DNA of 64,000 nucleotides from Escherichia phage P479. The notes under the pieces were generated by a model. It saw only the letters and a list, made by a program, of their open reading frames with translations, ran no database searches and was not told the DNA's origin. The DNA is taken from sequence record MW269952.1, one strand, 5' to 3'. The position numbers were made by a program, and so were the translations under genes. Shown here in pieces: positions 3,421 to 64,000 of this stretch. Each line of letters opens with the position of its first letter. Positions within the stretch are counted from its first letter, which is position 1.

Positions 3421-4599
3421 ATGTCTATTGCAGATTTGAAATCCCGTTTGATTAAAGCTTCTACATCCAAAATGACCGCGACTCTTACCAAGTCCAAGTT
3501 TTTTAATGATAAAGATGTAGTTCGTACAAAAATCCCGATGCTGAACATTGCAATCAGCGGTGCACTAGATGGTGGTATGCAGTCAGGTTTGACTATTTTT
3601 GCTGGTCCGTCAAAACACTTTAAATCCAATATGGGTTTAACGATGGTCTCTGCATATATGAACAAATACCCCGATGCAATCTGTTTGTTCTATGATTCAG
3701 AATTTGGTATCACAGAAGCATATCTTCGTGCAATGAAAGTTGACCCGGAACGTGTTATCCACACGCCAATCCAGTCGGTTGAACAATTGAAAGTTGATAT
3801 GGTTAACCAGCTTGAAGCAATTGAGCGTGGTGAAAAAGTCATTATCTTTATTGACTCAATCGGTAACATGGCGTCGAAAAAAGAAACAGAAGATGCGATG
3901 AACGAAAAAGTTGTTGGCGATATGACTCGTGCTAAATCCCTGAAATCTCTGTTCCGTATTGTTACTCCATATTTTAGCATCAAGGATATTCCTTGTGTCG
4001 CGGTTAACCATACAATCGAGACGATTGAGATGTACAGTAAAACCGTTATGACCGGCGGTACAGGTGTTATGTATTCCGCGGACACCGTATTCATTATCGG
4101 TAAACGTCAGATTAAAGAAACTGGTAAAGAACTTGAAGGCTTCCAATTTGTTCTGAACGCCGAAAAATCCCGTATGGTCAAAGAGAAAAGTAAATTCTTC
4201 ATTGATGTAAAATTCGATGGGGGTATTGACCCGTATTCTGGCCTGCTTGATATGGCAATGGAAATCGGATTTGTGGTGAAACCAAAAGTTGGTTGGTATA
4301 ACCGTGAATATCTTGATGTTGAGACCGGTGAAATGGTCCGCGAAGAAAAATCATGGCGTGCAAAAGATACTAACTGCACCGAATTCTGGGGCCCGCTGTT
4401 CAAACACGAACCTTTCCGTGATGCAATCAAACGCCATTACCAACTGGGTGCAATCGATAGCAATGCTGTTGTTGATGCCGAAGTTGATGCGCTTATTGCT
4501 TCCAAGGTTGAAAAATACACTGCTCCTGAAGGTAAGACAAAACCGTCCGCTGCAGATATCGAAAACGATTTAGATATGATGGAAGACCTTGATGAATGA
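3421..4599 (+). CDS. uvsX: UvsX RecA-like recombinase
   Basis: 392 aa; N-terminus MSIADLKSRLIKAS and Walker A GPSKHFKS match T4 UvsX; acidic C-terminus. Confidence 0.93.
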   Translation: MSIADLKSRLIKASTSKMTATLTKSKFFNDKDVVRTKIPMLNIAISGALDGGMQSGLTIFAGPSKHFKSNMGLTMVSAYMNKYPDAICLFYDSEFGITEAYLRAMKVDPERVIHTPIQSVEQLKVDMVNQLEAIERGEKVIIFIDSIGNMASKKETEDAMNEKVVGDMTRAKSLKSLFRIVTPYFSIKDIPCVAVNHTIETIEMYSKTVMTGGTGVMYSADTVFIIGKRQIKETGKELEGFQFVLNAEKSRMVKEKSKFFIDVKFDGGIDPYSGLLDMAMEIGFVVKPKVGWYNREYLDVETGEMVREEKSWRAKDTNCTEFWGPLFKHEPFRDAIKRHYQLGAIDSNAVVDAEVDALIASKVEKYTAPEGKTKPSAADIENDLDMMEDLDE

Positions 4600-4933
4600 T
4601 ATCGATTTATCTGATTTAGATAATTTCGAGAAAGATGCGGAGGGAGCTAAGGCTCCTTCTGTACCTTACTACGAAAAAAGTTTGGAGATTATCCGGCAAT
4701 CCATGGGAACTGTGCGACAGGAAATTCTGTTATCACTCCCTGATGGGTCCAGTCACATTGTGTACGTAACCGGAATTAAAATTGAACCATCTGGAAAAGT
4801 TTCAGTTGATTTCGGCACCCCTTCTGAAGACCGCAAAGCGGAGCTTGCAGTGCATGTAGAAAAGTGTGTTACAATGCAAATACAAGATGAAATTGATAAG
4901 ATTAAAATGAAAAAGAGGTGGTGGAAGTGGTAG
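4589..4933 (+). CDS. 40: gp40-like protein (head vertex assembly chaperone in T4)
   Basis: 114 aa between uvsX and 41; assignment by position and size. Confidence 0.5.
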   Translation: MMNDIDLSDLDNFEKDAEGAKAPSVPYYEKSLEIIRQSMGTVRQEILLSLPDGSSHIVYVTGIKIEPSGKVSVDFGTPSEDRKAELAVHVEKCVTMQIQDEIDKIKMKKRWWKW

Positions 4934-6357
4934 AAACTATTTTATCCCAGCTACTCTTTAACAAGGAATATTTTGTTAAAGTCTGGCCATATCTGAATAA
5001 CACATATTTTGAAAAGGGTCCTGCAAAGACCCTTTTTAATACGATTAACGAACACGTAAAAGAATATCAAGCGGTACCAACTAAGACTGCACTTGATATC
5101 GCGCTCGACAGTTCTGACCTTTCTGAAGTCGAATATGAAGGCACAAAGAAACTCTTAGGAGTCCTGGCCGATACACCAGAAGACCAGGAATGGTTGGTTA
5201 AAGAAACCGAGAAGTATGTACAGAAGTCTGCGATGTTCAATGCCACATCCAGGATTATCGAAATCCAGAGTAATGCCGAACTTCCGAAAGACAAACGTGA
5301 TAAACGAATCCCGGATATTGGTGCCATCCCTGACATCATGCGCGATGCATTGTCTATCTGTTTTGACTCTGCTCTGGGCCATGACTGGTTAAACGATTAC
5401 GAAGCTCGATTCCAGACTTATCTGAACAAATCGAAGAAGGTTCCGTTCCGTATTAACATCCTGAATAAAATCACAAAGGGTGGGGTTGAGTACGGTACAG
5501 AGAATGTTTTACTGGCCGGGACGAACGTCGGCAAATCCCTTGGACTTTGTTCGTTAGCCGCTGACTATCTTCAGACTGGTCATAATGTGCTTTATATAAG
5601 CATGGAAATGGCTGAAGAAGTATGTGCCAAACGTATTGATGCCAACTTGCTGGATGTATCTCTGGATGATATTGATGAAGGTCATGTGTCATGGGCAGAA
5701 TACAAAAGTAAGATGGAAAAATGGCGCGCAGCAGGGACTCTTGGGACTCTGAAGATAAAACAATATCCAACTGGTGGTGCTCATGCGGATACCTTCCGCG
5801 CATTATTGAATGAATACAAACTGAAGCAAGGGTTTGTGCCGGATGTGATTATTGTTGACTACCTGGCAATCTGTGCAAGCTCAAGACTGAAAACGTTTAC
5901 CGAAAACAGTTACGGTCTGATTAAGATGGTTGCAGAAGAACTTCGTGGTCTGGCGGTCGAGAAAAATGTGGTCCTGTGGACTGCAGCACAGACAACCAGG
6001 GGTGCGAACGTTGCAGCTGAGATTGATATGGCTGACATTGCAGAATCCTTTGGTATTGCTCACACGGCCGACTTTATGTTGGGTGTTGTTGAGACCGAAG
6101 AATTCGCTCAAATGGGACTACAGTTAATCAAACAACTTAAGTCTCGTTATGGCGATAAGAACTACTATAATAAATTCAAGATGGGTGTTAAGAAAGGTAA
6201 TCAGCGCTGGTACGAGGTTGATGATGATTCAGCTCCTAAACAAGGCTCTACGGTTAAAGAAGCCACTGGTGAGATGAATCGCCAGGCTGAAATGAATAGA
6301 CAAACCAGGGTCAACAGGAGCGACCTGGACGACCTTGCTGCTCAAATGAAATTCTAA
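4918..6357 (+). CDS. 41: gp41 replicative DnaB-like helicase
   Basis: 479 aa; Walker A GTNVGKS; RecA-like core; T4 gp41 is ~475 aa. Confidence 0.92.
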   Translation: MVEVVETILSQLLFNKEYFVKVWPYLNNTYFEKGPAKTLFNTINEHVKEYQAVPTKTALDIALDSSDLSEVEYEGTKKLLGVLADTPEDQEWLVKETEKYVQKSAMFNATSRIIEIQSNAELPKDKRDKRIPDIGAIPDIMRDALSICFDSALGHDWLNDYEARFQTYLNKSKKVPFRINILNKITKGGVEYGTENVLLAGTNVGKSLGLCSLAADYLQTGHNVLYISMEMAEEVCAKRIDANLLDVSLDDIDEGHVSWAEYKSKMEKWRAAGTLGTLKIKQYPTGGAHADTFRALLNEYKLKQGFVPDVIIVDYLAICASSRLKTFTENSYGLIKMVAEELRGLAVEKNVVLWTAAQTTRGANVAAEIDMADIAESFGIAHTADFMLGVVETEEFAQMGLQLIKQLKSRYGDKNYYNKFKMGVKKGNQRWYEVDDDSAPKQGSTVKEATGEMNRQAEMNRQTRVNRSDLDDLAAQMKF

Positions 6358-10941: not shown

Positions 10942-11457
10942 ATGGCTCATTTTAATGAATGTTCTCAACTGATTGCTGGTGTTGATAAAGCTCAGGGCGC
11001 TTATGATAATGCAATTTTTGAAGGCACTGACCCACTGCAAGTTATGCTTGATATGCAGAAATCATTGCAGGTTCGTCTGGCTAATGACCGTGATTATTGC
11101 TACCATCCAGATAAATTAGCGACTGCTGGTGATGTTGTTGCTTGGATGCGCGAACAAAAAGACTGCATTGACGATGAATTCCGTGAACTGATTACTTCAT
11201 TGGGTGAAATGTCTAAAGGTGAAAAAGATGCATCTGCTGTCTGGAAAAAATGGAAGGCTCGTTATACTGAAGCGCAAGCTAAACCAATTTCAGAAATGTC
11301 CCCAGAAGACCAGCTTGAAATTAAATTTGAATTAATTGATATCATGCATTTCGTATTCAATATGGCTATTGGTTTGAATATGTCTGCGGAAGAATTGTTC
11401 AAACTGTATTATCTGAAAAATGCCGAGAACTTTGCGAGACAGGACCGTGGCTATTAA
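10942..11457 (+). CDS. 56: gp56-like nucleoside triphosphate pyrophosphatase (dCTPase/dUTPase family)
   Basis: 172 aa from ATG at 10942 (track starts at upstream TTG); all-alpha MazG-like pattern; T4 gp56 is ~171 aa; position between 61 and soc. Confidence 0.7.
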   Translation: MAHFNECSQLIAGVDKAQGAYDNAIFEGTDPLQVMLDMQKSLQVRLANDRDYCYHPDKLATAGDVVAWMREQKDCIDDEFRELITSLGEMSKGEKDASAVWKKWKARYTEAQAKPISEMSPEDQLEIKFELIDIMHFVFNMAIGLNMSAEELFKLYYLKNAENFARQDRGY

Positions 11458-12103
11458 GGCAAGATTTCATAGGACGTATATAATTAAAGTTAAAACGCCG
11501 AAAGGCGTTTTTTGGTATGGTGGTAAACACGAAACCAATGTACTAGACCCATATAAAGACCGATATTCAGGCTCCGGAAAAATACTCTGGAACATATATA
11601 AAAAGTATGGAGTCAAATATCAAATTCGCTGGTTTGTTGGTCACCAGAATAGGGAAATGGCGTTTGAACATGAAAGATATCTAATATCATTATTAAATTC
11701 TAAACATGGTTCAAACTGTATTAATATTTTACCTGGTGGGCAGGGCGGAGGCGGATATGAATGGACTGATGAAATGAAGTTGGCCCAAACACTACGTTTA
11801 AATAAGCCCGAAACTAAAGCTAAAATGAAAAGCGCCCAATGTGTTGCTCAAAATCGCCCTGAACGCAAATCCAGACAATCAAAAGCAATGAGCGAGTTTT
11901 ATGCAAATGGTGGAAATAAAATCGTATCAGAAGCCACATCTAAAGCGCAAAGAACTGCAGCTCATTGGCATGAACCATTGAAAAGTGAAATCTATCAGAT
12001 TTGGCTTTCATTAGGTAAACCCGGTGGAGCTTCTGCTGTGGTTAAAGCACTTAAGGGAAAATACGAAACAACCCCCAGCGCACTTAAACTTTTAATATAT
12101 TAA
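11420..12103 (+). CDS. GIY-YIG homing endonuclease (Seg-like)
   Basis: YIIKVKTPKGVFWYGG ... YSGSGK resembles Seg proteins; start overlaps last 38 nt of gene 56. Confidence 0.65.
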   Translation: MPRTLRDRTVAIKARFHRTYIIKVKTPKGVFWYGGKHETNVLDPYKDRYSGSGKILWNIYKKYGVKYQIRWFVGHQNREMAFEHERYLISLLNSKHGSNCINILPGGQGGGGYEWTDEMKLAQTLRLNKPETKAKMKSAQCVAQNRPERKSRQSKAMSEFYANGGNKIVSEATSKAQRTAAHWHEPLKSEIYQIWLSLGKPGGASAVVKALKGKYETTPSALKLLIY

Positions 12104-20346: not shown

Positions 20347-20838
20347 ATGAAAGTTGAAGAAGGTGATATTGTACGTGTTTCTAAAGAATCTCGTTCTAAA
20401 GCTGCTGGTCGTTTTGTTGAGGTTGTGAGTCTTCGCACTAATTTAGTAGGTGGAATTAAAGAAGTTAAAGTGCGTATTATTCCTAAACATGGTCATGCTG
20501 AAACTCAATTGGCTTATGTACATCCTAAATTCCTGGAATCAACTGAATTTACTGGATACATCGCTCCAGTAGTTGAAGAAGTTGAAACCATCGACCAGTC
20601 TCATGTTGGGGTTGATTTTAAATGGAAATTAGGTAAAGGTGTCTTTTTCGTTTCACCTAAACCGTTTGAATACAATTGCATGTACGGTCCGACTTATGAA
20701 ACCACTAGTATGTCCGGTTACATCACCGACCAGTGGGTTGAAGAAGGTGTTAAGCTGTATAATATCGTGTTCCTTGGAACCTTTAAAGTAGTTCCTGAGA
20801 GCTTTATCGTTGAGTATGCCGATATTCATTTTGCCTAA
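20347..20838 (+). CDS. motB: MotB-like protein
   Basis: 163 aa (T4 MotB 162 aa); N-terminal KOW-like GDIVRV; position between dexA and 39. Confidence 0.5.
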   Translation: MKVEEGDIVRVSKESRSKAAGRFVEVVSLRTNLVGGIKEVKVRIIPKHGHAETQLAYVHPKFLESTEFTGYIAPVVEEVETIDQSHVGVDFKWKLGKGVFFVSPKPFEYNCMYGPTYETTSMSGYITDQWVEEGVKLYNIVFLGTFKVVPESFIVEYADIHFA

Positions 20839-21657: not shown

Positions 21658-21918
21658 ATGAAGTACATTAATCGTTCTATTGCAGCGCTGGTTCTGGCAG
21701 TTTCATTGGCTGGCTGTACTGATACAGATAATGCTATTCGTGTGTTAGATGCAAACGGCTATGAACAAATCCAAATCACCGGATATAACTGGTTCTCTTG
21801 CGGTAAAGATGATTTCCAACATACAGGCTTTACGGCCGTGGGTCCAACTGGTAAGAAAGTTGAAGGAACTGTTTGTTCTGGTTTGCTATTCAAGAACAGT
21901 ACCATCCGATTTGAATAA
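21658..21918 (+). CDS. putative lipoprotein
   Basis: Signal peptide with lipobox LAGC; terminator follows. Confidence 0.55.
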   Translation: MKYINRSIAALVLAVSLAGCTDTDNAIRVLDANGYEQIQITGYNWFSCGKDDFQHTGFTAVGPTGKKVEGTVCSGLLFKNSTIRFE

Positions 21919-21936
21919 GGCCTTCGGGCCTTTTTG
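21917..21936 (+). terminator. intrinsic terminator
   Basis: AAGGCC-TTCG-GGCCTT then TTTT. Confidence 0.7.
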
Positions 21937-21981
21937 CTTTAAAATATGTGACTTATAATACCTCCATACACAAGAGGAAAG

Positions 21982-22782
21982 ATGATGATTAATGAAGTAT
22001 TCGGGATAATAAAAAATAAATTTCCTGATTATATTCCACCATCGAGTGGAAATAGTGGGATTTATATAATTTATAATTTAATATCTCAAAAATATTATAT
22101 AGGAAGTTCAAATGATTTTCATCGTAGAATTGCCACGCATTTTCGGAATTTATCCAAAGGTGTTGGCATAAACAGCCATTTACAGTTTGCATATGACAAA
22201 TACGGTAAAGAATCATTTGTATGCGAACTAATAGAAAATATAGAAGTTTATAATAAAAAATATTTCTTGAAAAGAGAAAGTTTCTGGATAACTGAATTAA
22301 ATTCTATCAAAAACGGTTATAATATAACGTTGGCGGATTTTGGTGGTGACACAATGTCCAATCATCCAAGAAAAGCGGAAATTAATTTACTTAAAGGCGA
22401 AGCCGTTAAAAAACGGAATAAACTGTTAGATAAAACCGAATATAATAGAATATATGGAACTGGTGTTAAAAGAAAGCCATACCCCGATGATTTTGGTTAT
22501 AATGTCTCCCTGCGTAAAGCAGGCGAAAATCATCATTTCTTTGGCAAACATCTTTCTCTTGAACACAAAGATAAATTATCAAAATTATTCTCTGGTGGTA
22601 AAAATCCCGAGGCTAAAACGTACTCTATAAATGGGGTCATATTCACAACCCGAAAAGAAGCCGCCGAAGTTCTTGGTATTAGTTATCCTACATTACGAAA
22701 ACGCTGCAAATCCGATGATGTAAAATGGTCCAGTTGGAAATGTTTAGGTTATACTAAAAATTTAGAGGTCAAAAATGATTAA
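21982..22782 (+). CDS. GIY-YIG homing endonuclease (Seg-like)
   Basis: GIYIIYNLISQKYYIGSS; AT-rich; basic C-terminal DNA-binding region; overlaps start of gene 39 by 8 nt. Confidence 0.8.
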   Translation: MMINEVFGIIKNKFPDYIPPSSGNSGIYIIYNLISQKYYIGSSNDFHRRIATHFRNLSKGVGINSHLQFAYDKYGKESFVCELIENIEVYNKKYFLKRESFWITELNSIKNGYNITLADFGGDTMSNHPRKAEINLLKGEAVKKRNKLLDKTEYNRIYGTGVKRKPYPDDFGYNVSLRKAGENHHFFGKHLSLEHKDKLSKLFSGGKNPEAKTYSINGVIFTTRKEAAEVLGISYPTLRKRCKSDDVKWSSWKCLGYTKNLEVKND

Positions 22783-24607
22783 GAATGAAATTCAAATCCT
22801 TTCTGATGTAGCTCACGTAAAAGCTCGCCCATCAATGTACATCGGTAGTGTTACCAATGAAGACAAAGAAATTTTTCTGTTTGGTGAATATAAAAAGGTT
22901 CAATACGTTCCAGGTTTAATTAAATTAATCGAAGAAATTGCAAATAACTCTATTGATGAAGCTATTCGCACCAATTTTAAATTTGCAAACAAAATTTCAT
23001 TGAATATTGATATCAAAACAAACGAAGTGACCGTTGAAGATAATGGTCGAGGCATTCCACAGGCGATTGTTGTAACCCCAGAAGGCGAAGAAATTCCTGG
23101 GCCGGTCGCTGCATGGACCAAGGTTCGTTCGGGTGGAAACTTTAGTGATGATGCAAATCGTGTTACCACTGGGATGAACGGAGTGGGGTCCAGTCTTACC
23201 AACATTTTTTCAATATTGTTCACAGGCACCACATCAGATGGGAAAAATGAATTAACCGTTAATTGTTCAAATGGACTTGATAATATTTCATGGAAATCAA
23301 AACCATCAAAGTTGCAAGGAACTAAAGTTAAATTTATTCCGGATTTTTCGAATTTTGAAACGTCTGGTTTTGACGAAACATATGTCCAAATTATGCTTGA
23401 CCAAATCCAGACTCTTGCAGTCATTTATCCGGATATCGAATTCAAGTTCAATGGTAAAAAAGTGCAAGGTCACTTTAAAAAATATGCCAAGCAATACGAT
23501 GATGAAATCATTATTCAGGAACAAGATAATTGCTCAATTGCAATTGGTCGGTCACCCGATGGTTTCCGTCATGTGACTTATGTTAACGGAATCCATACAA
23601 AAAATGGTGGTCACCATATTGAATGTGTTATGGATGAAATGTGTGATGTGTTAATCCCGGCGATTAAACGCAAGTATAAAATTGAAGTAACCAAAGCACG
23701 CGTTAAAGAATGTATTACATTGTTGATGTTTATTCGCAATATGAAGAACATGCGATTTGATTCCCAGACCAAGGAGCGATTGACTTCTCCGGCTGGCGAA
23801 ATCAAATCACATATCCAGGTTGATGGCAAAAAGTTAGCTGGTTCGTTGTTAAAATCAGAAGCTGTTCTGATGCCTATTATTGAAGCTGCATTAGCCCGTA
23901 AATTGGCTGCAGAGAAAGCAGCAGAGACTAAGGCAAATAAGAAAGCTTCAAAGGCCAAGGTACAAAAGCATATCAAGGCCAACGAATGGGGCAATGATAA
24001 GCTGGAAACGACTCTATTCCTGACCGAAGGGGATTCTGCAACTGGTCCATTTATCAAGGTTCGCGACCGTGAATTGCAAGGTGCTTATCCATTACGTGGT
24101 AAGTTTAAAAACACATGGGGTTTGAAAGCGGTTGACGTTATGAAGAACGCTGAAGCCTTTGATGTGTGTGCAATTACTGGATTAACGATTGGACAACCAG
24201 CCGAGAATATGAATTACCGAAACATTGCTATCATGACAGATGCGGATGTGGATGGCGTCGGTAGTATCTATCCATCGTTATTGGCGTTTTTCAGTAACTG
24301 GCCAGAGCTGTTCCATGAAGGGCGAATTCGCTTTGTGAAAACTCCTGTTATTATTGCACAGCTCAAAGATAAACAAGAATGGTTCTATTCTCTTCCTGAC
24401 TATGAAGAAGCTAAGGATAAACTTCCGAAGCACACCATCCGATATATCAAGGGGCTTGGTTCTCTGGAAGATTCCGAGTACAAACGCGTATTGCTCGAAC
24501 CAGTATTCGAAGTTGTTCAATTACCTGACAACTGGAAAGAACTGTTTGAAATGTTATTCGGTAAAGATTCCCAGCAGCGTAAAGACTGGATGAATGCGAC
24601 GCTATAA
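22775..24607 (+). CDS. 39: DNA topoisomerase II large subunit, gp39 with gp60 region fused
   Basis: 610 aa; GHKL ATPase (IDEAIRTNF, GRGIP) plus TOPRIM (LTEGDSA) in one ORF. Confidence 0.9.
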   Translation: MIKNEIQILSDVAHVKARPSMYIGSVTNEDKEIFLFGEYKKVQYVPGLIKLIEEIANNSIDEAIRTNFKFANKISLNIDIKTNEVTVEDNGRGIPQAIVVTPEGEEIPGPVAAWTKVRSGGNFSDDANRVTTGMNGVGSSLTNIFSILFTGTTSDGKNELTVNCSNGLDNISWKSKPSKLQGTKVKFIPDFSNFETSGFDETYVQIMLDQIQTLAVIYPDIEFKFNGKKVQGHFKKYAKQYDDEIIIQEQDNCSIAIGRSPDGFRHVTYVNGIHTKNGGHHIECVMDEMCDVLIPAIKRKYKIEVTKARVKECITLLMFIRNMKNMRFDSQTKERLTSPAGEIKSHIQVDGKKLAGSLLKSEAVLMPIIEAALARKLAAEKAAETKANKKASKAKVQKHIKANEWGNDKLETTLFLTEGDSATGPFIKVRDRELQGAYPLRGKFKNTWGLKAVDVMKNAEAFDVCAITGLTIGQPAENMNYRNIAIMTDADVDGVGSIYPSLLAFFSNWPELFHEGRIRFVKTPVIIAQLKDKQEWFYSLPDYEEAKDKLPKHTIRYIKGLGSLEDSEYKRVLLEPVFEVVQLPDNWKELFEMLFGKDSQQRKDWMNATL

Positions 24608-33974: not shown

Positions 33975-34583
33975 GTGAACAAGTTAAATTATATCGTTAA
34001 ATGCTCCCAGAACACGCTGCATGAGACTGATGTCAATGCTCTGGTGTTTGTATACAAAAACAACTTCGTGCGTCCAGAGGTTGTTTTAGACCAGCAGAAC
34101 ACATCAATTGATAGCATACAGACCTTGTTGAATAACAACTATGTTGAAGCTTCTGGTGATGGTTTGATGGTTACAGAAAAAGGCGTTGACCTTATTCTGG
34201 ATGCAGCTGAACTTTGGGCAAATGAAAATAATCCTGACCTTCTGGAAGTGAAGAAGACAAGAACAAAACGCGGTGTGACTGATGAAATGGAAGCGACTGC
34301 AGAATATATCAAAGAGCAATTGTTGTCTATTGGTATTGACTTTAAGAGCATTTCAGAAGACCGCAGCAATCTGATTGTGAAGTTCAAACGTATCAAGACA
34401 TTAAAACAGATTGATGTACGTCGTGATGGTCAGATTCGTGTGCATGCGTATAATACTGAACAAAAGATAGTAAAACAGTTTACAGACGTGGGATTTAGCG
34501 TTAAAGTAGGTGGATTGAATAACTACATTGACAACGTTATGTCAACTGAAAACATTCAACATGTTATTAACATCTTAAAGTGA
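33975..34583 (+). CDS. motA: MotA-like middle-transcription activator (tentative)
   Basis: 202 aa, GTG start; SGDGL segment and size/position (between 52 and asiA) as T4 MotA. Confidence 0.4.
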   Translation: MNKLNYIVKCSQNTLHETDVNALVFVYKNNFVRPEVVLDQQNTSIDSIQTLLNNNYVEASGDGLMVTEKGVDLILDAAELWANENNPDLLEVKKTRTKRGVTDEMEATAEYIKEQLLSIGIDFKSISEDRSNLIVKFKRIKTLKQIDVRRDGQIRVHAYNTEQKIVKQFTDVGFSVKVGGLNNYIDNVMSTENIQHVINILK

Positions 34584-55012: not shown

Positions 55013-57268
55013 ATGCAAGTACAAAAAAGTAGTGGTGTATCTCAAGATTTTGATGGCCAGAAAATTATTAAAGTTCTTTCTTGGTCATGTGAAGGAACCA
55101 ATATCGACCCATACGAATTATACGAAACAATCAAACCACATCTGCGCGATGGCATGACTACTCGCGATATTCAGACGGTTATCATCAAAGTGTCTGCTGG
55201 GCTTATCTCGGTTGAAGAACCAGATTACCAATATGTTGCAGCCAAAGCTACGATGTTTGCTCTGCGTAAAGATGTTTATGGACAATTTGAGCCGCGTTCT
55301 TTTATTGACCAGATTTCTTATTGTGTTAATGAAGGCAAATACGACCCGGAGCTGTTGTCAAGCTACTCGGCCGAAGAGATTACTTATCTGGAATCTCGTA
55401 TCAAGCATGAACGTGATTTTGACCTGACTTATGCAGGCGCGATGCAACTTAAAGAGAAATACCTGGTTAAAGATAAAACCACTGGTAAAATCTACGAGAC
55501 TCCACAATTCGCTATCATGGCTATCGGCATGGCACTGCACCAGGATGAACCAACGGACCGCCTGAAGCACGTTTGCCGTTTTTATGATGCAGTATCCACC
55601 CGACAGGTTTCGTTGCCCACACCTATCATGGCGGGCGCCAGAACACCTACCAGGCAGTTCAGTTCCTGTGTGGTTATCGAAGCGGCTGACTCCCTGAAGT
55701 CAATTAATAAGACTGCTAATTCAATCATCGAATATATCAGTAAGCGTGCAGGTATCGGTATCAACGTTGGCATGATTCGTGCCGAAGGTTCGAAAATCGG
55801 TATGGGCGAAGTCAAGCATACTGGTGTTATTCCGTTCTGGAAACATTTCCAAACGGCTGTTAAATCATGTTCACAAGGTGGAATCCGTGGCGGCGCTGCT
55901 ACTGCTTATTATCCTATTTGGCATTTGGAAGTTGAAAATTTACTCGTTCTGAAGAACAACAAGGGCGTTGAAGAAAACCGCATCAGACATATGGACTATG
56001 GTGTCCAGCTGAATAACCTGATGATGGAACGACTGGCTAAGAATGATTACATCACTCTGTTTAGTCCACACGAAGCTGGCGGTGAATTGTATTATTCATA
56101 TTTTGATAACCCGGATAAATTCCGCGAGTTATATGAAGCCTTAGAAAAAGACCCGACGGTTCGTAAGAAGCGCATCAAAGCAAAAGATGTATTCGAATTA
56201 TTCATGACCGAACGTTCCGGTACAGCCAGGGTTTATCCGCAGTTCGTCGATAACGTGAATGACTACACTCCGTTCATCCGTGACAAGGCTCCGATTCGTC
56301 AATCAAACCTTTGCTGCGAAATTGCAATCCCAACTACTGATGTGAACAGCGAAGACGCTGAAATCGGATTGTGCACATTGTCTGCATTTGTTCTGGATAG
56401 TTTTGACTGGCAGGACCAAGATAAGATTAACGAGCTAGCCGAAGTTCAAGTTCGTGCACTTGACAACCTGTTGGACTATCAGGGTTATCCGGTTAAAGAA
56501 GCTCTGAAAGCCAAAAAACGCCGCAACCTGGGTGTTGGGGTTACTAACTATGCTGCATGGTTGGCAAGCAATTTCGCTTCCTATGCTGATGCAAATGATT
56601 TAACGCATGAACTGTTCGAGAGATTACAATATGGCCTTATCCGTGCATCAATCAAGCTCGCCAAAGAAAAAGGACCTTGCGAATATTATTCAGACACTCG
56701 TTGGGCTCGAGGCGAATTACCTATCGACTGGTACAATAAAAAGATTGACCAAATCGCAGCTCCAAACTACGTTTGTGACTGGGCGCAGTTGCGGGAAGAC
56801 CTGGTTGAATATGGCATCCGTAATAGCACATTATCAGCACTTATGCCTTGTGAGTCATCTTCCCAAGTTTCTAACAGTACAAACGGTATCGAACCTCCGC
56901 GTGGACCAGTCTCTATTAAAGAGTCAAAAGAGGGTTCCTTTAATCAAGTCGTGCCCAATATTGAGCACAATAAAGGATTGTACGATTACGCATGGGTGCT
57001 AGCTAAGCAGGGTAACAAACCTTATCTGACCCAAGTCGCGATTATGTTGAAATGGATTTGCCAGTCGGCATCAGCAAACACGTATTATGACCCGCAGAAT
57101 TATCCGAAAGGAAAAGTTCCGATGTCAGTTATGCTTGACGACTTGATGTATGGTTGGTACTACGGAATCAAGAATTTTTACTATCACAATACTCGTGATG
57201 GCTCGGGAACAGACGATTACGAAATCGAAGCTCCTAAAGCAGAAGACTGCTCCGCCTGTAAACTGTAA
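55013..57268 (+). CDS. nrdA: Ribonucleotide reductase large subunit NrdA
   Basis: 751 aa; N-terminal ATP cone; class Ia core incl. NLCCEI; terminal Cys pair. Confidence 0.93.
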   Translation: MQVQKSSGVSQDFDGQKIIKVLSWSCEGTNIDPYELYETIKPHLRDGMTTRDIQTVIIKVSAGLISVEEPDYQYVAAKATMFALRKDVYGQFEPRSFIDQISYCVNEGKYDPELLSSYSAEEITYLESRIKHERDFDLTYAGAMQLKEKYLVKDKTTGKIYETPQFAIMAIGMALHQDEPTDRLKHVCRFYDAVSTRQVSLPTPIMAGARTPTRQFSSCVVIEAADSLKSINKTANSIIEYISKRAGIGINVGMIRAEGSKIGMGEVKHTGVIPFWKHFQTAVKSCSQGGIRGGAATAYYPIWHLEVENLLVLKNNKGVEENRIRHMDYGVQLNNLMMERLAKNDYITLFSPHEAGGELYYSYFDNPDKFRELYEALEKDPTVRKKRIKAKDVFELFMTERSGTARVYPQFVDNVNDYTPFIRDKAPIRQSNLCCEIAIPTTDVNSEDAEIGLCTLSAFVLDSFDWQDQDKINELAEVQVRALDNLLDYQGYPVKEALKAKKRRNLGVGVTNYAAWLASNFASYADANDLTHELFERLQYGLIRASIKLAKEKGPCEYYSDTRWARGELPIDWYNKKIDQIAAPNYVCDWAQLREDLVEYGIRNSTLSALMPCESSSQVSNSTNGIEPPRGPVSIKESKEGSFNQVVPNIEHNKGLYDYAWVLAKQGNKPYLTQVAIMLKWICQSASANTYYDPQNYPKGKVPMSVMLDDLMYGWYYGIKNFYYHNTRDGSGTDDYEIEAPKAEDCSACKL

Positions 57269-57909
57269 TGAATTATCAAAACATTTATAATAATTTAATA
57301 TCCCGGGGTAAAACCCGGGAACCTTTAACTGAGTATAAAGAGATTCATCATATTATCCCAAGATGTATGGGTGGCACTGATGAAAAGACAAACCTTGTTG
57401 AGTTAACAGGCCGCGAACATTTCATTGCACATTGGCTTCTTACAAAATTTACCAATTCTGCTGGACTTAATCAAGCCTTTGGTATGATGTGTCTTACCAA
57501 TAAAGGTAGACAATACAATGTTTCTTCTAGACTATACGAAATTGGCAGAAAGCTTTTATCGGAGTCTATGACAGGACGAAAAATGTCTGAGGAAACTAAG
57601 AAGAAAATTAGTGAGACTCTTAAAGGAAGAGAATTCACAAAAGAGCATATTGCTCGTATGCGGAAGCCAAAAACTGAAAAAGCCAAAAAGAATATCGCTG
57701 CAGCTAAGGTTGGTGCGCTTAATCCAATGTATGGTACAATATCTCCAACAAGAGATGTTCCACATACAAAAGAAACATGCGAATTGATTTCTTTAAAAAC
57801 CAAACAAGCCACTGATTATCCGCCCTGTCCACATTGTGGTAAAAAGGTCAATAAGGGTAACGCATTGAGATGGCATTATGATAAATGCAAATTTAAGGAC
57901 TTAAAATGA
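57268..57909 (+). CDS. HNH homing endonuclease (MobE-like) with NUMOD3-type repeats
   Basis: EIHHIIPRCMGG..NLVELTGREHFIAHW; repeats GRKMSEETKKKISETLKG; Zn-finger CPHCGKK; wedged between nrdA and nrdB. Confidence 0.8.
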   Translation: MNYQNIYNNLISRGKTREPLTEYKEIHHIIPRCMGGTDEKTNLVELTGREHFIAHWLLTKFTNSAGLNQAFGMMCLTNKGRQYNVSSRLYEIGRKLLSESMTGRKMSEETKKKISETLKGREFTKEHIARMRKPKTEKAKKNIAAAKVGALNPMYGTISPTRDVPHTKETCELISLKTKQATDYPPCPHCGKKVNKGNALRWHYDKCKFKDLK

Positions 57910-59084
57910 GTACAGTTTTTAACACCAAACAAGTTGATGTTTTGGAGGAGCCGATGTTCTTCGGTTCTGGATTGGGCATCGCCCGTTATGATATCCAACG
58001 TCATAAGGTATTTGAAGAACTTACTGAAAAATCCCTCTCATTTTTCTGGCGACCTGAGGAAGTAAACCTGATGATGGACGGAGCTCAATTTAATAAGCTT
58101 CCTGAACATCAACAAAATATTTTTACCAACAACCTGAAATACCAATCACTTCTGGATAGTATACAGGGTCGTGCTCCAGCTGCAGCATTAGCCGCATTAG
58201 TTTCTGACCCAAGTCTTGATACATGGATTCAGACCTGGACATTCAGCGAGACAATTCACTCTCGTTCTTATACGCACATCATGCGAAATCTCTATACTGA
58301 CCCGGCGAAGGTATTCGACGAAATCCTGTTAGATGATGCAATCATGAAGCGCGCAGAATCCATTGGTCATTACTATGATGATGTTCTGAATAAAACTCGT
58401 CAATGGCAAAACCAGATTGCTTTTGTTGAACTGGCCAAAGAAACTCCCGAAGCGGACGAACGTTTGGAACGAGCTATCAAACAAGAAGCTATCGCCAAAC
58501 GAGCATTGATGAAGTCTCTTTATCTCTGCCTGCATGTTATTAACGCCCTGGAAGCTATTCGTTTTTATGTATCTTTCGCATGTACTTTCAACTTCCATAA
58601 GAACATGGAAATCATGGAAGGTAATGCGAAGATAATGAAGTTCATCGCCCGTGATGAACAGCTTCACCTTAAGGGGACACAATATATTCTTCGTCAGCTG
58701 CAAACTGGTGTAGACGGTGACGAATGGGTTAAAATCGCTCACGAATGCGAAGCAGAAGCCGCAGCTATTTTCATGGAAGTTAATCGCCAGGAAAAAGAAT
58801 GGGCCGTGCATCTGTTTAAAGATGGTGGACTCCCTGGGTTGAGCGTCGAGATTCTTAACCGCTTCATCGATTACCTGACAGTTTCTCGTATGAAGCAATG
58901 CGGTCTCCCTTGTGAAATCGTGTTAGAATCTACTAAGCACCCGATTCCATGGATTCGCGAATATCTTAACTCTGATAATGTGCAATCTGCCCCACAAGAA
59001 GTTGAGTTGTCTGCTTACCTGGTAGCCCAGATTGACAATGACGTCGATGAGAATGTTCTTGCTGGTTTCCGTAAATATCTATAA
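57906..59084 (+). CDS. nrdB: Ribonucleotide reductase small subunit NrdB
   Basis: 392 aa; di-iron ligands; uninterrupted. Confidence 0.92.
   Translation: MSTVFNTKQVDVLEEPMFFGSGLGIARYDIQRHKVFEELTEKSLSFFWRPEEVNLMMDGAQFNKLPEHQQNIFTNNLKYQSLLDSIQGRAPAAALAALVSDPSLDTWIQTWTFSETIHSRSYTHIMRNLYTDPAKVFDEILLDDAIMKRAESIGHYYDDVLNKTRQWQNQIAFVELAKETPEADERLERAIKQEAIAKRALMKSLYLCLHVINALEAIRFYVSFACTFNFHKNMEIMEGNAKIMKFIARDEQLHLKGTQYILRQLQTGVDGDEWVKIAHECEAEAAAIFMEVNRQEKEWAVHLFKDGGLPGLSVEILNRFIDYLTVSRMKQCGLPCEIVLESTKHPIPWIREYLNSDNVQSAPQEVELSAYLVAQIDNDVDENVLAGFRKYL

Positions 59085-62274: not shown

Positions 62275-64000
<1,726 letters not shown>

Follow-up and report, generated by a model that had tools for sequence, protein, structure and literature searches.

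A predicted I-TevI-type GIY-YIG homing endonuclease gene inserted at the start codon of topoisomerase gene 39 in a Gaprivervirus-like T-even phage

The free-standing GIY-YIG genes of phage T4 (SegA to SegG, with SegG at gene 32 and SegF at gene 56) lie between conserved genes or at the edge of such genes. They have no promoter of their own and use the transcription unit of the host genes, are present in some relatives and absent from others, and are accompanied by a co-conversion-like replacement of the adjacent gene (PMC2988022). Another T4 element, mobA, has its insertion site at 60.1/39, with the topoisomerase gene split at nt ~1400 (PMC2988022; bioRxiv 10.1101/2022.08.31.505936; PMC11461880). 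At the nrd genes, SegH/Hef replace MobC/MobE, according to the accounts that cite Sandegren et al. 2005 (PMC2988022; bioRxiv 10.1101/2022.08.31.505936). I-TevI, encoded in the group I intron of T4 td (structures 1LN0, 1MK0 and 1I3J), is a two-part enzyme with an N-terminal GIY-YIG domain, a flexible linker that contains a Cys4 zinc finger (the distance determinant), a NUMOD3-like segment and a C-terminal helix-turn-helix.

Here we analyze a nuclease gene adjoining the topoisomerase gene 39 within a 64-kb stretch of phage DNA (the window). The phage is a Gaprivervirus-like T-even phage, its nearest genomes being those of Gaprivervirus SP18, TH40, VR20 and RZ, and the gene order in the region is dexA, a motB.1-like gene, motB, cef, goF, 39.2, 39.1, the nuclease gene, 39, three small ORFs and rIIA. 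We propose that this nuclease gene is a functional, free-standing homing endonuclease gene of the I-TevI type, a mobile selfish element, and assign this reading a probability of roughly 0.78. The immediate gain is a correct annotation: until now the product has been labelled only as "hypothetical protein" (QWQ55848.1, Escherichia phage P479).

The initial annotation had ascribed to this ORF a GIY-YIG motif, an AT-rich composition and an 8-nt overlap with the start of gene 39, and all three held up. The ORF was confirmed and matches the GIY-YIG family (see below); its GC content is 31.6%, compared with a window mean of 40.3% (standard deviation 2.9) for 801-bp stretches, none of which had a lower GC content when sampled every 50 bases across the 64 kb; and its stop codon TAA (22780-22782) lies within the overlap that begins at the gene 39 ATG (22775). 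The same annotation placed the gene at a motB-39 junction, which is incorrect: the actual upstream neighbour is 39.1 (21658-21918), and motB (20347-20838) is separated from the nuclease gene by cef, goF, 39.2 and 39.1. The features of the locus are collected in Table 1.

Table 1. Features of the nuclease gene and of gene 39, with positions in the window
Feature	Position	Strand	Evidence or remark
Terminator-like GC hairpin, UUCG loop, with T-run	21917..21932	+	after gene 39.1; -9.3 kcal/mol
T4 middle-promoter-like motif: MotA box TGCTTTA, 12 nt, TATAAT	21935..21959	+	pattern match; native to the 39.1-39 spacer
Native gene 39 Shine-Dalgarno sequence, GAGG	21974..21977	+	predicted now to serve the nuclease; identical to empty-site relatives through 21993
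Predicted GIY-YIG homing endonuclease ORF, free-standing	21982..22782	+	266 aa; 265 aa from ATG 21985
N-terminal 24-aa extension before the GIY motif	21982..22053	+	first 4-5 codons are native gene 39 codons
Left ATGATTAA copy, native gene 39 start	21985..21992	+	left boundary of the 790-bp insert
GIY-YIG catalytic domain, aa 25-121	22054..22344	+	44-45% identical to I-TevI
NUMOD3 motif, aa 176-200	22507..22581	+	Pfam
I-TevI-type helix-turn-helix DNA-binding domain, aa 202-252	22585..22737	+	Pfam; 1i3j E 5e-5; Foldseek
New gene 39 Shine-Dalgarno sequence, GAGG	22765..22768	+	6 nt before the ATG, in the last nuclease codons
Right ATGATTAA copy	22775..22782	+	gene 39 start codon overlapping the nuclease stop
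Gene 39, topoisomerase II large subunit, unsplit, 610 aa	22775..24607	+	ORF, Pfam, PHROG
5' block of gene 39, class I, covering the ATPase and transducer domains (aa 1-~368)	22775..23880	+	travels with the nuclease gene

The translated ORF, which contains SGIYIIYNLISQKYYIGSS, matches the Pfam GIY-YIG family (PF01541) over aa 25-114 (2.2e-11; 44 bits, with the cut-off at 22.6), NUMOD3 (PF07460) and the I-TevI DNA-binding family (PF20987), the latter two at scores above the Pfam gathering scores, as well as PHROG 314, 'homing endonuclease' (3.6e-37). In a phmmer search of the PDB, aa 25-121 matched the catalytic domain of I-TevI (1mk0/1ln0, 1.7e-19) and aa 178-249 matched its DNA-binding domain (1i3j). 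The I-TevI residues Y6, Y17, R27, H31, E75 and N90 correspond to Y28, Y39, R49, H53, E99 and N114 of the nuclease, and these six catalytic residues are invariant across 13 aligned sequences (the nuclease and 12 database homologues); the position of I-TevI H40 is occupied by Gly. The AlphaFold model (mean pLDDT 70.5; 81-91 across most of the catalytic domain) was aligned by Foldseek with 1ln0 at a target-normalised TM-score of 0.93-0.94 and an rmsd of 0.9-1.0 Å, and 1i3j was also matched (probability 1.0). The ORF thus encodes an intact GIY-YIG homing endonuclease of the I-TevI type, which is probably active and mobile.

No Cys cluster that could represent a zinc finger was found in the linker (aa 122-200), and the alignment with 1i3j begins past the finger of that structure. 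Rfam searches for a group I intron yielded no match at gathering scores in the entire window, nor at E <= 1 around the nuclease ORF, and the ORF is contiguous with gene 39; an intron-encoded nuclease is therefore ruled out and the gene is assigned as free-standing, like the Seg genes. In GIY-YIG enzymes the motif is normally located at the extreme N-terminus. The homologues in our alignment begin 1-10 residues ahead of the motif and lack the 24-aa extension of the window nuclease, a feature that is unusual for enzymes of this class.

The insert comprises 790 bp and lies at the gene 39 start codon, between the two copies of ATGATTAA. In TH40 and SP18, where the site is empty, the sequence at the gene 39 start reads ...TTTTGCTTTA-N12-TATAAT-ACCTCCATACACAAGAGGAAAG ATG ATG ATT AAT AAT GAA ATT.... 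The window matches both exactly up to ATGATGATTAAT (21993), the nuclease sequence comes next, and homology returns at ATGATTAAGAATGAAATT (22775). The possibility that ATGATTAA is a significant repeat in itself was rejected, with 9 copies in the window against 6.2 expected; its meaning comes only from the homology to the gene 39 start. The nuclease ORF has no start codon of its own and borrows the Shine-Dalgarno sequence and ATG of gene 39: no in-frame ATG, GTG or TTG is present in the window between 21988 and the GIY motif. The second ATG (21985) is the likelier start, giving 265 aa, because the native Shine-Dalgarno sequence is spaced 7 nt from it, versus 4 nt from the first ATG; the 265-aa start is the one called in most database copies of the nuclease.

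The terminator-like hairpin between 39.1 and the nuclease gene is retained in the empty-site relatives, and the middle-promoter-like motif is identical in TH40 and SP18. The T4 middle-promoter consensus consists of a MotA box and a -10 element. This pattern occurs five times in the window, compared with 1.4 expected matches, and the window encodes motA itself (33975-34583). We infer that the motif drives both the nuclease gene and gene 39. Because the nuclease gene is sited on the Shine-Dalgarno sequence and ATG of gene 39, downstream of the native MotA-type motif, it would be the first cistron of the gene 39 middle transcript. The T4 late promoter sequence TATAAATA was not detected near the nuclease ORF, the nearest copy being located where gene 39 ends (24603), and a scan for sigma-70 promoters produced matches no more numerous than in shuffled sequence. 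RNA structures that would mask either start site, as described for I-TevI, were not apparent: the predicted folds were similar to those of shuffled sequence, with z-scores near 0.

The initial annotation held that a lack of variation among relatives would speak against a homing endonuclease at this locus. The locus does vary: it is empty, with 39.1 running directly into gene 39, in seven Gaprivervirus genomes (SP18, TH40, VR20, VR25, TH44, TH57 and P8), and is occupied by another nuclease in RZ and VR26. The window nuclease belongs to a 9-member cluster in a collection of 15 billion proteins that includes QWQ55848.1. In 10 of the 10 metagenomic contigs retrieved (L004-L013), it is encoded directly before gene 39, which its gene likewise overlaps by 8 nt; these contigs were found through the nuclease gene itself, and the P479 record was taken from the cluster listing. 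The nuclease was represented only in Logan, ENA and NCBI nr among the databases searched. It was absent from the INPHARED phages in a tblastn search, where the best matches were 43% (Tegunavirus) and 37% (I-TevI) identical, and neither the nuclease nor its gene 39 allele was found in INPHARED, in IMG/VR or in JGI metagenomes, where protein matches did not exceed 43% identity and DNA matches were absent. The closest relative in the phage database, at 43%, is located in Tegunavirus sp. BRC001 (contig L025, 2995-3728), where it consists of two ORFs between nrdA and td and appears to be a decaying pseudogene at a different locus.

Two additional Gaprivervirus contigs, L051 (3001-4833) and L052 (1697-3529), lack the nuclease gene and carry a gene 39 block that is 83-96% identical to that of the window at the nucleotide level and 97% at the amino acid level. 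Their junction, AAAGATG[ATGATTAA]GAATGAAATTCAA, equals the window sequence minus exactly 790 bp. These contigs are candidates for the naive (cognate) homing site or, alternatively, for precise loss of the insert via the 8-bp repeat. Together with the seven empty genomes, they define a presence/absence polymorphism at a fixed site, compared with the 10 occupied contigs and the GenBank P479 record.

A second polymorphism of this kind is located at about position 21920, between 39.1 and the terminator hairpin, where SP18, RZ and some of the contigs with the nuclease have an RB69ORF005c-like ORF of 132-134 aa that the window and TH40 lack. This ORF occupies positions 9534-9932 in L007, 1631-2035 in L008, 291-695 in L012 and 1114-1512 in L002; the former three are nuclease contigs (3 of 10) with this ORF upstream.

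The gene 39 product (PHROG 543, 1e-267) contains the Pfam domains HATPase_c, DNA_gyraseB and TOPRIM_C. Over nt 1-1100, the window gene is only 53-81% identical to the genes of empty-site Gaprivervirus, and from about nt 1106 (window position ~23880) identity rises to 89-98%. At the protein level, aa 1-366 are 67-68% identical to the empty alleles of the same genus, compared with 82% for Klebsiella phage Biddle_MM4 and 91% for P0023/L045, whereas aa 367-510 are 99-100% identical within the genus. Thus, half of gene 39 differs by 20-45% between phages that are otherwise 92-97% identical. The same pattern, with the same breakpoint near nt 1100, is seen in Dhakavirus when Bp7, which has a nuclease at this junction, is compared with IME08, which has none.

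Neighbour-joining trees of the N-terminal and C-terminal parts of gp39 disagree: the C-terminal tree tracks genus taxonomy, whereas the N-terminal tree splits into two classes with 95-99% bootstrap support. Class I includes 10 of 10 alleles accompanied by a nuclease, which represent three nuclease families and at least five genera, and the nuclease-free Gelderlandvirus STML-198. Class II consists of the nuclease-free alleles of SP18, TH40, VR20, IME08, T4, G2540 and CHI14, that is, 7 of the 8 nuclease-free alleles in a tree that was small, was partly picked by similarity to the window allele and left out L051 and L052 (nuclease-free, class I). A strict tie between the divergent block and the nuclease was rejected, given that L051, L052 and STML-198 carry the block alone; class I blocks exist without a nuclease, and therefore divergence of the block is, by itself, no proof of nuclease-driven transfer.

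All 11 copies of the nuclease gene are intact. Lineages A (the window and most contigs) and B (L004 and L013) differ at 36 nucleotides, 25.5 of these differences being synonymous and 10.5 non-synonymous; dN/dS, from this one two-lineage comparison, is 0.09, and the gene appears to be under strong purifying selection. Within lineage A, the block 21982-23880 (the nuclease gene and gene 39 nt 1-1106) is 98.9-100% identical, compared with 92-98% for the downstream flank and, in most contigs, 91-96% for the upstream flank (the outliers being L005, 99.2%, and L010, 77%). The ends of the identical tract differ by contig (left, 21886-21917 or 21414; right, 23649-24122), and its left edge is immediately beside the nuclease gene. 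Such a pattern of identity would be expected if a single cassette had been imported repeatedly into different genomes. The element and the adjacent gene 39 sequence are common to otherwise diverged genomes, which is the signature of co-conversion; the block is also found without the nuclease.

From what is typical of the family, the following mechanism can be proposed. During mixed infection, the nuclease would bind DNA via NUMOD3 and its helix-turn-helix tail, and the GIY-YIG domain would cut the gene 39 region of a related, nuclease-free phage. The break would be repaired by recombination from the nuclease-bearing genome, and the repair would copy in the nuclease gene along with the adjacent ~1.1 kb of gene 39. 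The putative cleavage site is probably at or near the conserved gene 39 start, a sequence interrupted by the insert, or else within the 5' 1.1 kb of the gene. The density of mismatches between lineages A and B was uninformative as a pointer to the cleavage site.

Two further observations were made inside gene 39. I-TevI prefers to cleave at CNNNG, and, by eye, CTCGG and CGTCG are present 20-30 bp inside the class II gene and absent from the window allele; this difference is a lead only and could be due to chance at 30-40% divergence. In addition, positions 23749-23802 (gene 39 nt ~975-1028) form an island of ~55 nt, encoding MRFDSQTKERLTSP, that is nearly identical between class I and class II alleles, whose identity is otherwise 55-80%; L009 and L011 switch lineage at about this place, and the island seems to serve as a site of recombination.

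The block is not strictly linked to the nuclease, so that some weight has to be given to a reading in which the nuclease is a passenger: the 5' block of gene 39 would be swapped by ordinary homologous recombination at the ATPase/TOPRIM boundary, the nuclease would hitch-hike or arrive later, and the identity pattern would stem from a selective sweep in which a favourable topoisomerase module spread. The nuclease-free class I blocks, in L051 and L052 on a Gaprivervirus background and in STML-198, are compatible with such swaps, and the breakpoint near nt 1100 also recurs with a different nuclease (Bp7 versus IME08); furthermore, synonymous divergence between lineages A and B is greater in the block (0.45) than in the nuclease gene (0.18). 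We nevertheless consider this reading unlikely, in view of the class I assignment of all 10 nuclease-bearing alleles against 7 of 8 nuclease-free alleles in class II (in the tree that excludes L051 and L052), the left edge of the identical tract that abuts the nuclease gene, and the apparent strong purifying selection on a nuclease that keeps all its catalytic residues. Still less probable, in our assessment, is a non-cutting or domesticated protein, either a DNA-binding regulator of the gene 39 operon or a weapon or defence factor. I-TevI acts as a repressor of its own promoter, and the place of the nuclease as first cistron on the translation signals of gene 39, which implies early/middle expression, the unusual N-terminal extension and the missing zinc finger could all be accommodated by a regulatory role, but a pure DNA binder would not need the catalytic residues, all of which are retained, and the presence/absence polymorphism and the near-identical block in diverged backgrounds resemble a mobile element.

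The parallel with T4 mobA drawn in the initial annotation amounts to a different alternative, namely, that the nuclease occupies the same conserved homing site as mobA, with an HNH enzyme exchanged for a GIY-YIG one. Both genes adjoin gene 39, and the reported target gene of MobA is 39 (PMC2988022, Table 1), but, according to the T4 coordinates and the literature, the two elements differ in site, in nuclease family and in what they do to gene 39. T4 gene 39 occupies 3778-5328 on the minus strand, and the defective HNH gene mobA (3654-3767) is found between its 3' end and 60.1/60, ~1.5 kb away from the 5' junction where the window nuclease resides; upstream, T4 gene 39 is preceded by 39.1, and no nuclease gene is present there. 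MobA thus splits gene 39 at the 3' end, with a published insertion at nt 1399-1419 of the gene (bioRxiv 10.1101/2022.08.31.505936), whereas the window element is at the 5' start of an unsplit gene. An identical site is ruled out by these coordinates and reports, and we assign this alternative a negligible probability. The broader suggestion of a conserved homing site fared better: T4 mobA is not part of it, but two other nuclease families are found at the same junction in relatives of the window phage.

Endonuclease_7-type genes (PF02945; 235-272 aa) are located at this junction in RZ, VR26, TH15, L045 and L053-55, and Seg-like/NUMOD3 genes (226-227 aa) in Bp7, AV115, TG1, Biddle_MM4 and L047; together, these two families occupy the gene 39 5' junction in at least five genera. 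BLASTP detected no similarity of the window nuclease to either family. The gene in RZ is inserted ~20 bp upstream of the insertion spot in the window. Its ATG is positioned only 6 nt past the TATAAT of the middle-promoter-like motif (L001, 1550-1565), and therefore a transcript from this motif would be nearly leaderless, or else expression would depend on read-through from upstream. The Seg-like gene overlaps gene 39 by 8 nt (ATGATTGA), except in the annotation of Biddle_MM4 itself, and is already labelled "GIY-YIG homing endonuclease" in several GenBank records. Matches over at least 80% of its length were found in 39 phage records, and the full-length records listed all adjoin the topoisomerase gene. 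Gene 39 is flanked on both sides in AV115 and L045: besides the upstream nuclease, AV115 (L024, 4324-5121) encodes an HNH/NUMOD3 endonuclease directly downstream of gene 39, and L045 (3664-4491) has in this place a 275-aa ORF without a Pfam match.

Around the gene 39 start, the empty Gaprivervirus sites of class I and class II have almost the same sequence, AAGAGGAAAGATGATGATTAA(G/T)AATGAAATT, and it is plausible that this conserved start is a shared target or a safe landing site. At somewhat less than even odds, we advance the hypothesis that at least three unrelated homing endonuclease families across Tevenvirinae share a hotspot at the 5' end of gene 39 and that their nucleases drive the cross-genus exchange of the ATPase-transducer module (aa 1-~366), with the breakpoint recurring at the domain boundary near nt 1100, leaving class I (nuclease-carrying) and class II (native, target) alleles. 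The twist specific to the window nuclease is that it has captured the start codon and ribosome-binding site of its target. In the literature searched, no description of a site for nucleases at this end of gene 39 was found.

The window encodes other putative homing endonucleases. The 227-aa ORF at 11420-12103 (plus strand; PHROG 314, 'homing endonuclease', 4e-30; no Pfam match) is probably the other Seg-like/GIY-YIG gene that was counted as the first in the initial annotation. At 57268-57909 (plus strand), a 213-aa HNH and NUMOD3 homing endonuclease (PHROG 655, 1e-63) lies between nrdA (55013-57268) and nrdB (57906-59084) and overlaps both genes, which is the position of mobE in T4. The 185-aa ORF at 63393-63950 on the minus strand (PHROG 655, 'homing endonuclease', 4e-25) lies next to the polynucleotide kinase gene on the opposite strand (62574-63479), whose end it overlaps, and may be truncated.

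The locus offers an example of a mobile element wedged into a start codon without harm to the target gene, and gene 39 is a natural example of how homing elements might ferry parts of adjacent essential genes from phage to phage. In phage genomics and taxonomy, the 5' two-thirds of gene 39 would make a poor phylogenetic marker. A relative of I-TevI that lacks the zinc finger and has a new target would offer enzyme engineers a candidate nuclease domain.

Compared with the known systems, the window nuclease is most similar to I-TevI, its closest characterised protein (~37% identity across 85% of the length; 44-45% within the catalytic domain). Both proteins have a two-part architecture, in which a GIY-YIG domain at the N-terminus, with identical catalytic residues, is joined by a flexible linker to a NUMOD3-like segment and a helix-turn-helix at the C-terminus. 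The window nuclease differs in being free-standing at gene 39 rather than encoded in the td intron, in lacking the Cys4 finger of the linker, and in the extra 24-aa N-terminal extension, which is partly derived from the gene 39 start. With the T4 Seg genes it has in common the free-standing location at the edge of a conserved gene, the inferred expression from the host unit, the presence/absence among relatives and the co-conversion-like swap of the adjacent gene, but its sequence is closer to I-TevI than to any Seg gene matched, and it is not purely intergenic, being placed in frame on the start codon and ribosome-binding site of its target with an 8-nt overlap. Like the gene 39-60 bypass cassette of T4, with MobA, it is a homing endonuclease gene directed at the topoisomerase gene; MobA, however, is an HNH enzyme, inserted at nt ~1400, where it splits the gene and adds a 50-nt bypass, whereas the window element is a GIY-YIG gene at the start of gene 39, which remains unsplit. 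Finally, as far as the case of SegH/Hef and MobC/MobE is described in the sources cited above, it resembles the present one in that unrelated nuclease families are found at the same junction in different T-even phages, there at the nrd genes and here at the 5' end of gene 39.
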